Source of the DNA: a virus | Taxonomy: Duplodnaviria; Heunggongvirae; Uroviricota; Caudoviricetes | Direction: 5' to 3' (one strand) | IMG/VR virus record: IMGVR_UViG_2713896788_000013 | DNA length: 10,130 nucleotides | Shown: positions 6,001-9,000 of the stretch, piece by piece | How positions within the stretch are numbered: the stretch's first letter is position 1 | Layout: the number at the start of each line of letters is the position of its first letter | Position numbers: made by a program

Positions 6001-9000
6001 AAAGATTTACCTCCTTCAATCCAGGAGATTGCAGCACACACACTTCGTCATCGTCTGAACGAACTTGAATTGGAATCGGTAACGAAAAAAGACACTGATA
6101 ATATGGCTCGTAATGTGCGCGATGCGTTTACCGGATTGTATTTCTGTGCGTCTATAAATAAACACGACTCAGAGAGTGTGGCAAATAAAATTGCAGAAAC
6201 GACAGCGCAAAACATCAATACGAAACCAACGGAAGAAGAAATTGATCAGTTTGCTCATGATGCTGGTTTAAAAAACAAGAAAGAAAAATCGCCATATGCG
6301 GGGAACATGTTTGTTTATGACAATCTCATCAGAATTCGTGGCGAAATTCCGGCGGAATACCTGGCAAGAGTCCATCAGGCATTGCTTAAAAATTTGGAAA
6401 CAGAATTATTTGATGGCAACACTAACGGTTTCTTCATGGTATCAGGCCTTGAGAAAGACTGGGATGCAGAAAAACGCTGGAATGTTGCTACATGGTTATT
6501 CAGTAACAGAGCCGCTGCACTGGAAGCTTCGGCATGTATTTGCGGCCTGTTCTTAACAGACCACAAATATAATCTGGATGTGTACAGTTATATTTACGCT
6601 GAACACGGTCCACTCTGGATTGACTGGTAATTATAAGGAAACACCAGCAGGGCCGCGGCGACCAACAGAACGATTAAAATCAATAATGCCATTATAAAGG
6701 ACATTATTTAATTTATCGTCGAATGCTGATTCTGTGAGCCTCAACTCTGAATGAGTTTTTAATAACCCTGATTGCCTGAGTTGATTTACCAGGCATTCAA
6801 TCTGTTTTTCAATAAGCGGATTTCTTTTTTTGTTTGGCATTTTATCCTCCATTGAGGTTCTGGGTTAAAAATGGAGACCAACACGCTGTCACGTGTGGTC
6901 GTGCGCCGGACACGGATAAGAATCCGGTACTGACAGTTTACTGAAAGGATATTTCCCTGAAAAGTCAGTGCATAACGCGAAAGCGTACGGCGAAGCTCTT
7001 TCCCTTAGAAGGCTTGTCGTTAGATTTCTTCGAACGTGCGCTTCCGGTTGTGGCACTCCGCGAAATGGCGCGGCGGTAAGTATGGCGGGGTTATTCCTTC
7101 CCCATTGAGGACACCGGGTTGTCAGGTTGACCATACGCTTAAGTGACAACCCCGCTGCAACGCCCTCNNNNNNNNNNNNNNNNNNNNNNNNNNNNNNNNN
7201 NNNNNNNNNNNNNNNNNCGCTGCAACGCCCTCTGTTATCAATTTTCTGGTGACGTTTGGCGGTATCAGTTTTACTCCGTGGCTGCTCTGCCGCCCTTTTT
7301 AAAGTGAATTTTGTGATGCGGTGAATGCGGCTAAGCGCACGCGGAACAGTTAAAACCAAAAACAGTGTTATGGGTGGATTCTCTGTATCCGGCGTTAATT
7401 GTTAACTGGTTAACGTCACCTGGAGGCACCAGGCACTGCATCACAAAATTCATTGTTGAGGACGCGATAATGGAAACGTTATTACCAAACGTTAATACGT
7501 CTGAAGGTTGTTTTGATATTGGTGTTCTGCTCAGTAACCGGGAGTTTACTGAAGATGCCATTAACATGAGGAAATATGAGCCTTATCTGCTCAATGATAA
7601 TTCCATACTTTCCCGAATTGCTCTTCTTGAACTTGGTATTTTCGGAGAACGTCAATGACTTCAGCATTTGCACTGATGATGACGGTTTTTCTTATAACGG
7701 GTGAATCACAGAATGTGATTACCGGAATTTATGCCAGTAAAGAATCCTGCCTCCAGGCAAGAGACGAGCAAAAAATTTCTGGTGAATGCCTCCCGGTAAA
7801 AAAAGTATCGCTGTACCTGAATAACGAAACACCGGCTGGATAACCCTCCAGCCATATTAACACCATACCAACGGATTAAAAATGCCAGCAATGGCAGGGA
7901 TTTGTTCACCCTTAAATCTGTAATGAGGTTTATCAATGAGCACTGATAAAGAAGAATTTGCGCTATATTGCGAAGCAAAAAATGACAAAGTCAGAAAACG
8001 TCTGGGAATTAAAGGTGGTTTTTACTGGACTACAGCAAAAAAATTATCTGTTGCCATCTCCCGCTGCATTACCGCAATGGATGACAACGATTATGATGAA
8101 GACGACTTTAAAAAACCCGTTCGCGTCCATTTACCCGTTGTGAATGACCTTCCACCTGAAGGCGTGTTTGATACCGAATTCTGCAACCGATACGAAAAAG
8201 GCGGGGAAGATGGCATTACAATGGTATTTATCGCGCCCTCTCCCTCCGTGCAGGAGAAACCAGCCAGTACTGACAATACCAACGTCAACGGCGAAGACAT
8301 GACGGAGATTGAGGAGAATATGCTCCTGCCGGTTTCTGGTCAGGAGCTGCCCATTCGCTGGCTTGCGCAACACGGCAGCGAAAAACCAGTAACGCACGTT
8401 GCACGGGAAGAACTTCAGGCATTACATATAGCACGGGCGGAAGAACTGCCGGCTGTTACTGCCTTGGCCATTTCTCACAAAACAAAGCTGCTCGACCCGC
8501 TGGAGATTCGCGACCTTCACAAACTGGTACGCGACACTGACAAAGTTTTCCCTAATCCCGGTAATTCAGACCTGGGACTGATAACTGCTTTTTTCGAGGC
8601 ATACCTGGACGCTGACTACACTGATCGGGGTCTGCTGACAAAAGAGTGGATGAAAGGAAATCGTGTTTCGCGTATCACCCGTACGGCTTCCGGTGCAAAT
8701 GCCGGTGGCGGGAACAAAACCGATCGCAATCCGAATTTAGTACACACCTTCGATACGCTGGATGTGGAGATTGCAGCAGCCACACTTCCGATGGATTTTA
8801 ATATTTATGAAATTCCGGGCAGCGTTTATCGTCGCGCAAAAGAAATCGTCCTGAAAAGAGAAAGTCCGTTCAAAGAATGGTCCGCAGCACTTCGCGCAAC
8901 CCCGGGTATTCTGGACTATTCCCGCGCCGCTATTTTTGCACTTATCCGGAGCGCTCACCCTGAGTTTTATCACTACCCGGGACGCCTTCAGGGGTATATC

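Follow-up and report, generated by a model that had tools for sequence, protein, structure and literature searches.

The viral record IMGVR_UViG_2713896788_000013 (Duplodnaviria; Heunggongvirae; Uroviricota; Caudoviricetes) comprises 10,130 nucleotides, which in their entirety are referred to here as the window. The subject of this analysis is the segment at positions 6853-7364, which an earlier sequence-only reading had described as a structured noncoding region interrupted by a run of Ns: a candidate noncoding RNA or repeat array. We are virtually certain that this segment is the untranslated dicF portion of the dicB operon of a Qin-like prophage, on the plus strand. The source prophage is of the Qin-like type (dicB operon) of Shiga-toxigenic Escherichia coli, and the 1.1 kb around the region is, Ns aside, 100% identical to prophage DNA of many Shiga-toxigenic E. 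coli O157:H7, O26 and O121. The features of the locus, beginning with the small RNA DicF and the RNA element directly upstream of it, are:

7243-7295, plus strand: DicF small RNA, 53 nt (RF00039 match over 7244-7295; alignment with K-12 dicF, b1574)
7047-7161, plus strand: four-way-junction RNA with a pseudoknot, 115 nt, directly upstream of DicF (from comparative pairing)
7168-7232: assembly artefact, consisting of 50 Ns (7168-7217) and a second copy of CGCTGCAACGCCCTC (7218-7232); no real sequence
6896-7046, plus strand: conserved untranslated leader with three local hairpins (from the K-12 alignment)
7162-7167, plus strand: first 6 nt (GCCCUC) of a 16-nt linker, from which the true sequence runs on directly at 7233
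7233-7242, plus strand: remainder of the linker (UGUUAUCAAU), forming a small hairpin with the DicF 5' end in free-energy folds
7296-7469, plus strand: dicF-dicB spacer and dicB 5' untranslated region, holding AAGCGCACG and a sub-threshold STnc100-like match
7470-7658, plus strand: dicB, which comes next in the operon and encodes a cell-division inhibitor of 62 aa (RefSeq, from the identical region; phrog_1251)
6631-6852, minus strand: 73-aa open reading frame (ORF; 69 aa in RefSeq), phrog_4274, of unknown function, antisense inside the plus-strand dicB-type operon
5980-6630: 216-aa ORF which, with the 73-aa ORF, stands in place of ydfB and ydfC of K-12

In the RefSeq annotation of TR01 the order along the plus strand is a LexA-family repressor, a DUF1391 (YdfA-like) gene, the 216-aa ORF, the minus-strand 69-aa ORF, an unannotated gap, dicB, a DUF1482 gene and a RecE pseudogene. 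The layout of the K-12 Qin prophage (ydfA-ydfB-ydfC-dicF-dicB-ydfD) matches, and its homology to the window begins near 6898 and continues through dicF and dicB. PHROG scans of five neighbouring ORFs returned only families of unknown function. The region itself is widespread: it matches 4776 of 5426 E. coli genomes, 3513 of which cover at least 80% of the 557-nt query.

The region is assigned to DicF because it matches the Rfam family, because it has the identical operon context with dicB downstream, and because K-12 dicF is one substitution away. The covariance-model search proposed in the sequence-only reading found RF00039 at 7244-7295 on the plus strand with 75 bits (E = 1.6e-15; curated threshold 48 bits), covering the whole of the model (1-52 of 52). 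Relative to K-12 dicF (b1574, annotated as 53 nt), one loop base differs and the 5' 36 nt are identical. The layout is that of DicF – a 5' seed left single-stranded, then an intrinsic terminator hairpin with its U-run – and the Rfam structure is formed without non-standard pairs. A scan found a terminator-like site at the 3' hairpin; the hairpin and T-run suspected of being a terminator at 7258-7300 are indeed there, and belong to DicF itself. The element lies upstream of dicB and downstream of the ydfA-like DUF1391 gene: the suggestion of a prophage small RNA was thus correct. In the TR01 record (7241-7806) the feature table skips one locus tag, EEL45_RS10820, which would follow the 69-aa ORF and precede dicB and probably belongs to the dicF noncoding RNA.

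DicF was among the first bacterial small RNAs to be described, and the identity of the region is in this sense already known. It is cut from the dicB-operon transcript, its 5' end being made by RNase E (PMC5069750; PMC9438474) and its 3' end either by intrinsic termination, for the 53-nt form, or by RNase III, for one of 72 nt (PMC5069750; PMC9438474; PMC7873438). It is an Hfq-binding antisense RNA that represses translation of ftsZ, xylR, pykA and manX; enterohaemorrhagic E. coli carry four copies, and there DicF activates pchA (PMC5069750; PMC9438474; PMC7873438).

An exact 15-bp repeat flanks the 50-N run (7168-7217) in the window, at 7153-7167 and 7218-7232. The repeat is present as the sequence-only reading described it, but it is not biological. 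In complete genomes the true sequence holds a single copy of CGCTGCAACGCCCTC: in NZ_CP033605, where 7568 is the last locus position of the left flank and 7554 the first of the right, the two overlap by 15 bp with nothing between. Since the flanks overlap in a complete genome, the repeat and the N-run are a scaffolding artefact, that is, a join of two overlapping contig ends with nothing hidden beneath the Ns. All 25 of the 100%-identity genome matches listed span 1036 bp for the 1101-bp query, a difference of 65 bp (50 Ns plus 15), and in K-12 and the O157 reference the repeat segment continues directly into TGTTATC. The same is seen in 70 distinct relatives, collected by a scan of viral contigs with one exact 19-base motif: in every one the core alignment ends in one copy of the repeat segment. 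The window has a second N-run (76 Ns at 4234-4309, in a minus-strand replication-gene region) where the reference has 151 real bases; the two gaps, this one and that at 7168-7217, mark the record as a scaffolded draft assembly. That a contig should break here is plausibly due to the domain upstream of DicF, which occurs at seven places in TR01, the copies diverging right after the break point. To be set against the artefact is the formal possibility of an insertion under the N-run in this particular strain; no insertion-sequence ends are visible at the contig ends.

The repeat was the sole observation behind the idea of a repeat array partly under the Ns, or of a tandem-repeat RNA of the type III antitoxin (ToxI) kind. 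It collapses to a single copy with nothing between the flanks; Tandem Repeats Finder detects no array in the true sequence; no ToxI family is among the Rfam matches; and no listed feature of the reference locus is named as ToxN-type (no dedicated ToxN, Pfam or PADLOC scan having been made). We give this idea practically no credence. A protein-coding region is also highly improbable. ORFs exist mechanically on both strands of the true sequence (95 aa on the minus strand, 46 aa on the plus), but RefSeq places no protein gene here in K-12 or O157, single-base indels in the H3 region (see below) break both frames among close relatives, and substitutions are compensatory in helices rather than concentrated at third codon positions. 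The 156-aa minus-strand ORF, which the sequence-only reading had noted to cross the Ns, is produced by reading through them and is absent from the true sequence. The description of the region as noncoding therefore stands.

What was less expected is the structure ahead of DicF. Very probably DicF is preceded by a real, conserved RNA structure: a 115-nt junction with a pseudoknot, which forms the head of a modular phage RNA cassette. Its parts, all on the plus strand, are:

7047-7054 with 7154-7161: closing helix P0
7058-7073: hairpin H1 (CCGCG-AAATGG-CGCGG)
7074-7077 with 7113-7116: helix H2, enclosing H3
7086-7104: hairpin H3, with a pyrimidine-rich loop
7117-7124 with 7144-7151: helix H4
7080-7085 (GUAUGG) with 7131-7136 (CCAUAC): pseudoknot

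One of these parts, H1, had been picked out previously as a local hairpin; the structured character of the region thus extends well beyond what was first noticed. Among the 70 distinct sequences, standard pairs occupy 95.8% of cells, as compared to 31-56% when the partners are slid by one to three columns. Nine pairs are changed on both sides, and the count of double-changed cells was reached by none of 500 shuffles. The compensatory changes across relatives that the sequence-only reading had proposed to look for are therefore present, and they are spread over the structure: U-A becomes C-G in the pseudoknot of P1 (GUAUGG/CCAUAC becoming GCAUGG/CCAUGC), in H2 of P7-like phages and in H4 of the P1 clade, while C-G becomes U-A in P0 of the Ayreon type. 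At least six stem sequences occur in H3, all of them preserving the hairpin. For most variants, minimum-energy folding independently gives the junction and a separate terminator, and a covariance model built from the junction alignment (hereafter R1) scores 161.5 bits on the window junction. A comparison of strands gives a modest pointer to the plus strand (95.8% of cells paired vs. 91.7% on the other strand, with 145 G-U cells). RNAalifold, applied to a MAFFT alignment, recovered H1-H3, placed H4 in another register and missed P0; this discrepancy arises because the P1 rows are misaligned, and a covarying pair at alignment columns 104/128 supports the H4 register chosen here.

Several points weigh against reading the junction as a well-established structure. 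The single-sequence folding energy of the core is unremarkable (z of -0.23 on the plus strand and -0.39 on the minus strand), so that the evidence for the structure is comparative, not thermodynamic. The set in which covariation is seen is narrow – closely related phages of Escherichia, Shigella and Salmonella, all found through the one motif – and the compensatory changes visible number roughly ten, some possibly inherited together, in counts that are not phylogeny-aware.

The loop of H3 (7090-7100) keeps a pyrimidine motif, UCCUYC/CUCC, which resembles an anti-Shine-Dalgarno sequence, though the stems vary; the loop could be a pairing or protein-binding surface. In two viral contigs, L014 and L059, natural recombination has removed or replaced the P0 5' strand, so that P0 cannot form; in L014 an upstream CGCGAAA motif (about 6980 in the window) is fused to the H1 loop. 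These two junction copies may be decaying.

No Rfam 15 family matches the junction domain in the window, P1, Ayreon or the locus of sRNA-17 (described below). In the literature searched no description of the junction was found; an earlier account in older papers on DicF or P1 is possible.

The junction is not confined to dicF loci. BLAST shows a stretch of about 100 nt upstream of DicF to be conserved on its own in phage P1, phage Ayreon and Stx2c phages, and the domain is present also in P1-like plasmids; in P1 it lies in the ban operon leader, beside a feature annotated as "dicF-like region". The taxonomic range given here rests on phage, plasmid, E. coli and viral-contig collections; in a scan of genome contigs with a 14-base motif, the first 120 matches were all due to chance except for Escherichia albertii. 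In every version an intrinsic terminator follows within about 45 nt of the junction, its arm beginning UUUGGCGG in the majority of those outside P1. What lies between P0 and the terminator varies greatly: about ten types occur, and the DicF seed is one of them. The unit can be described as a cassette in which the closing helix with its three arms precedes a hypervariable single-stranded segment and then an intrinsic terminator; DicF represents one version of the variable segment plus terminator. The junction lies in early operons, in operon orientation. Qin-like prophages have it behind ydfABC-type genes; in Ayreon it stands about 280 nt from an annotated pL-type promoter and in P1 about 45 nt from the P1ban -10 signal, downstream in both cases. 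A scan with R1 found one copy per phage and none in the rightward operon. The right-hand immunity region of Ayreon, whose junction is in the left operon, also holds matches to C4 antisense RNA (80.7 bits) and to isrK (58.9 bits) (extract 40-228); C4 antisense RNA (RF01695) has no match in the window or in the P1 ban leader.

A relative with a characterised transcript is sRNA-17 of the neonatal-meningitis E. coli strain RS218: 193 nt by rapid amplification of cDNA ends (RACE), repressed by ArcA, and encoded in an mEp460-like prophage (PMC7719688). It affects survival in blood, and its deletion alters host gene expression and virulence phenotypes; the paper reports no Rfam homolog and does not mention dicB (PMC7719688). 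Its primers and sequence place it at the equivalent early-left operon position in a yfdPQR-type prophage. In strain E2863 sRNA-17 starts at the P0 5' strand (CGUUGUGGU), ends at an Ayreon-type terminator, and is predicted to fold as a closing helix with three arms. R1 does not match the sRNA-17 core, and homology over the whole 193 nt was not found. Since sRNA-17 is a discrete RNA, the unit from closing helix to terminator accumulates in at least one relative, and the core is exchangeable. At the E2863 locus (extract 2501-2694, minus strand) the H1 loop of sRNA-17, GCUGAU, is complementary to the loop of its third hairpin, AUCAGC, which hints at a contact between the two loops comparable to the pseudoknot in the window junction.

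As to what the junction does, we propose tentatively, and with less than even confidence, that it is a cis-acting maturation and insulation module of the DicF precursor. The junction would fold into a compact body marking the 5' boundary of the precursor unit, and the first AU-rich single-stranded stretch downstream would be left exposed as the entry site for the RNase E cut that releases DicF. In free-energy folds the DicF 5' end sits in the AU-rich loop of the small linker hairpin (UGUUAUCA/UGGUGACG), and that loop would be the cut site. The idea of a boundary is supported by sRNA-17, whose RACE-mapped 5' end lies at the base of the equivalent closing helix. The maturation role is one that we infer, and two considerations count against the proposal as it stands. 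In P1, a seed segment is missing between closing helix and terminator, so that production of a base-pairing small RNA cannot be the common function of the family. Moreover, a specific binding partner is more likely than passive insulation, since a simple roadblock would not need near-invariant loops and a pseudoknot. An attractive sub-hypothesis, drawn by analogy, is that of a tRNA-like substrate for RNase P: the topology is that of a cloverleaf, sRNA-17 has its 5' end at the helix base, and a CCA often follows a few bases after P0. Models of tRNA gave no match to the locus.

Conserved loops and a pseudoknot, suggestive of a specific partner, also speak for a different reading, in which the junction is a cis regulator of elongation – a put-like antiterminator RNA conferring terminator resistance on RNA polymerase, or a leader that binds a factor or ligand – setting the level of read-through of the DicF terminator into dicB and the early operon. 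The junction is always in an early operon, in operon orientation and directly before an intrinsic terminator that must be read through for the downstream genes; in P1 it starts just after the P1ban -10 signal; in Ayreon it stands in the pL leader of a phage for which no N gene is annotated and in which the ORF directly downstream is not arginine-rich; and K-12 contains both terminated and read-through transcripts (PMC5069750). Yet the HK022 immunity region has no sequence or R1 match to the junction, put RNA has a different architecture (two stem-loops and a triplex in about 70 nt; PMC9378689), and the junction occurs once per phage, absent from the rightward operon, unlike in HK022 with its pair of putL and putR. 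Folding with the P0 5' strand withheld still gives the terminator in the minimum-energy structure of most variants, and a competing fold appears only in the O157 variant. A competing antiterminator is thus not consistently seen, and this speaks against a local switch of the riboswitch type. We consider this reading unlikely overall. Two candidates close to it were rejected: homology to HK022 put (different architecture, no match in HK022, and a single copy in Ayreon); and a boxA/nut site 5' of the junction, the string GUGC(G/U)CU being weak and absent in P1 versions. Local competition of a riboswitch type between P0 and the terminator is disfavoured, not being consistent across variants. The OL/nut-like control region entertained in the sequence-only reading likewise gains no direct support: an N-like gene is annotated neither in the reference locus nor in Ayreon, and boxB hairpins were not inspected for.

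Likewise unlikely, in our judgement, is that the junction and terminator together act in trans as a structured RNA in the manner of sRNA-17, by binding a protein or by pairing of the H3 loop with mRNAs, with DicF a secondary cleavage product. The case for such an RNA draws on sRNA-17 itself, alike in closing helix and terminator, which accumulates as a 193-nt RNA with deletion phenotypes (PMC7719688), on the H3 loop, which keeps its motif while the stem changes, and on the P1 versions, which consist of core and terminator. It is weakened by the lack of a known target or partner, by the literature searched, in which no DicF-type locus is recorded as giving a stable RNA, whether of about 190 nt or of about 135 nt, and by sRNA-17 in turn: its core is not homologous by R1, and its 5' end was mapped by a RACE procedure that cannot tell primary ends from processed ones (PMC7719688). 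An AgvB-like sponge of GcvB, raised by the CA-rich motif CACAAC, was rejected on two grounds: the motif is the P0 3' strand and covaries with GUUGUGG, and AgvB lies between the late promoter and the lysis genes (PMC7873438). A broader view is possible but doubtful, namely that the junction, which occurs in most E. coli genomes, K-12 among them, is the founding member of an undescribed class of temperate-phage RNA. It would engage part of the host machinery, for instance RNA polymerase, RNase P or the ribosome, and thereby govern terminator read-through or excision of small RNAs, with DicF, sRNA-17 and other seeds as interchangeable cargoes.

Returning to maturation and insulation of the DicF precursor: joined with the DicF identity, the artefact and the anatomy of the junction, this makes up an overall explanation that we regard as probably the best available. 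The by-product of the analysis is a covarying pseudoknotted domain upstream of DicF, common to phage P1 and lambdoid early leaders. Were it to have a defined function, this would account for the making of DicF-type RNAs or for the control of passage into dicB, and would link DicF to sRNA-17, which are unconnected in the sRNA-17 paper (PMC7719688) and in the reviews consulted. We regard the conserved junction as a worthwhile side lead rather than as an established novelty.

The sequences on either side of the junction and DicF are themselves structured in part. The leader holds three hairpins – CGGAU-AAGA-AUCCG near 6911-6924, a long ACUGAC...GUCAGU, and ACGC-GAAA-GCGU – and the stretch containing it folds with z = -2.2 relative to shuffles; in part it matches an intergenic hairpin of Shiga toxin (Stx) phages. 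Near 6907-6928 a hairpin does form where CCGGA-N12-TCCGG had been proposed, but the fold prefers CGGAU-AAGA-AUCCG; K-12 keeps the stem, with a different loop. In the spacer, all 9 nt of AAGCGCACG (7333-7341) are complementary to CGUGCGCUU (7035-7043). A long-range stem for RNase III processing between these segments was rejected, the duplex energy being no better than that of shuffled or real-sequence controls (z from -0.5 to -1.3, and +1.5 for Ayreon); as a modelled pairing with AAGCGCACG as its 3' strand, it may be retained as a weak lead. STnc100-like matches, all below the threshold of 47 bits, recur alongside the junction-terminator unit in three operons of unrelated context: in the window at about 7293-7502 (34.7 bits; TR01 record 7629-7838), in P1 (33.4 bits; extract 3842-3961) and in Ayreon (23.1 bits; extract 4056-4236). 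The first lies directly after the junction-terminator unit, in the dicF-dicB spacer; those of the P1 ban operon and the Ayreon early-left operon lie about 1.2-1.4 kb downstream.

Comparison with known systems places the element among several types of phage and bacterial RNA. ToxI RNAs share with it no more than being phage-associated noncoding RNAs. The likeness to HK022 putL and putR is one of position: both are structured RNAs in the early operons of N-less lambdoid phage, upstream of terminators, with two put copies per phage as against one junction. With MicL, SroC and CpxQ, examples of small RNAs from 3' untranslated regions or from within operons whose flanking stem-loops guide processing, the likeness lies in an RNase E cut of a terminated or read-through mRNA just past a structured element, which releases an Hfq-binding small RNA ending in a terminator (PMC9438474); the upstream element of the window differs in being a large covarying junction with a pseudoknot, found also at loci without a seed-bearing small RNA. 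The Rfam DicF family covers the 52-nt small RNA, the conserved 115-nt domain upstream being outside the model. K-12 DicF (b1574) has the operon position upstream of dicB and the terminator hairpin in common with the window copy, with no substantive difference. The "dicF-like region" of P1 (NC_005856, 68791-68892), an annotation that is a note of similarity only, is homologous to the window junction, R1 scoring 93.6 bits over P1 68708-68846; compensatory changes are seen in H2 and H4 of this version and in its pseudoknot. It departs from the window junction by an additional hairpin, by another closing helix with a terminator of its own immediately behind it, and by lacking the DicF seed. In sRNA-17 the three arms differ in sequence from those of the window junction and the variable segment is not DicF; what is shared is limited to the closing-helix strands (CGUUGUGGU, ACCACAAC), spacer and terminator, and to Ayreon-type relatives of the window element, with which these parts are identical. 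The topology, a closing helix with three arms, is as in the window junction.

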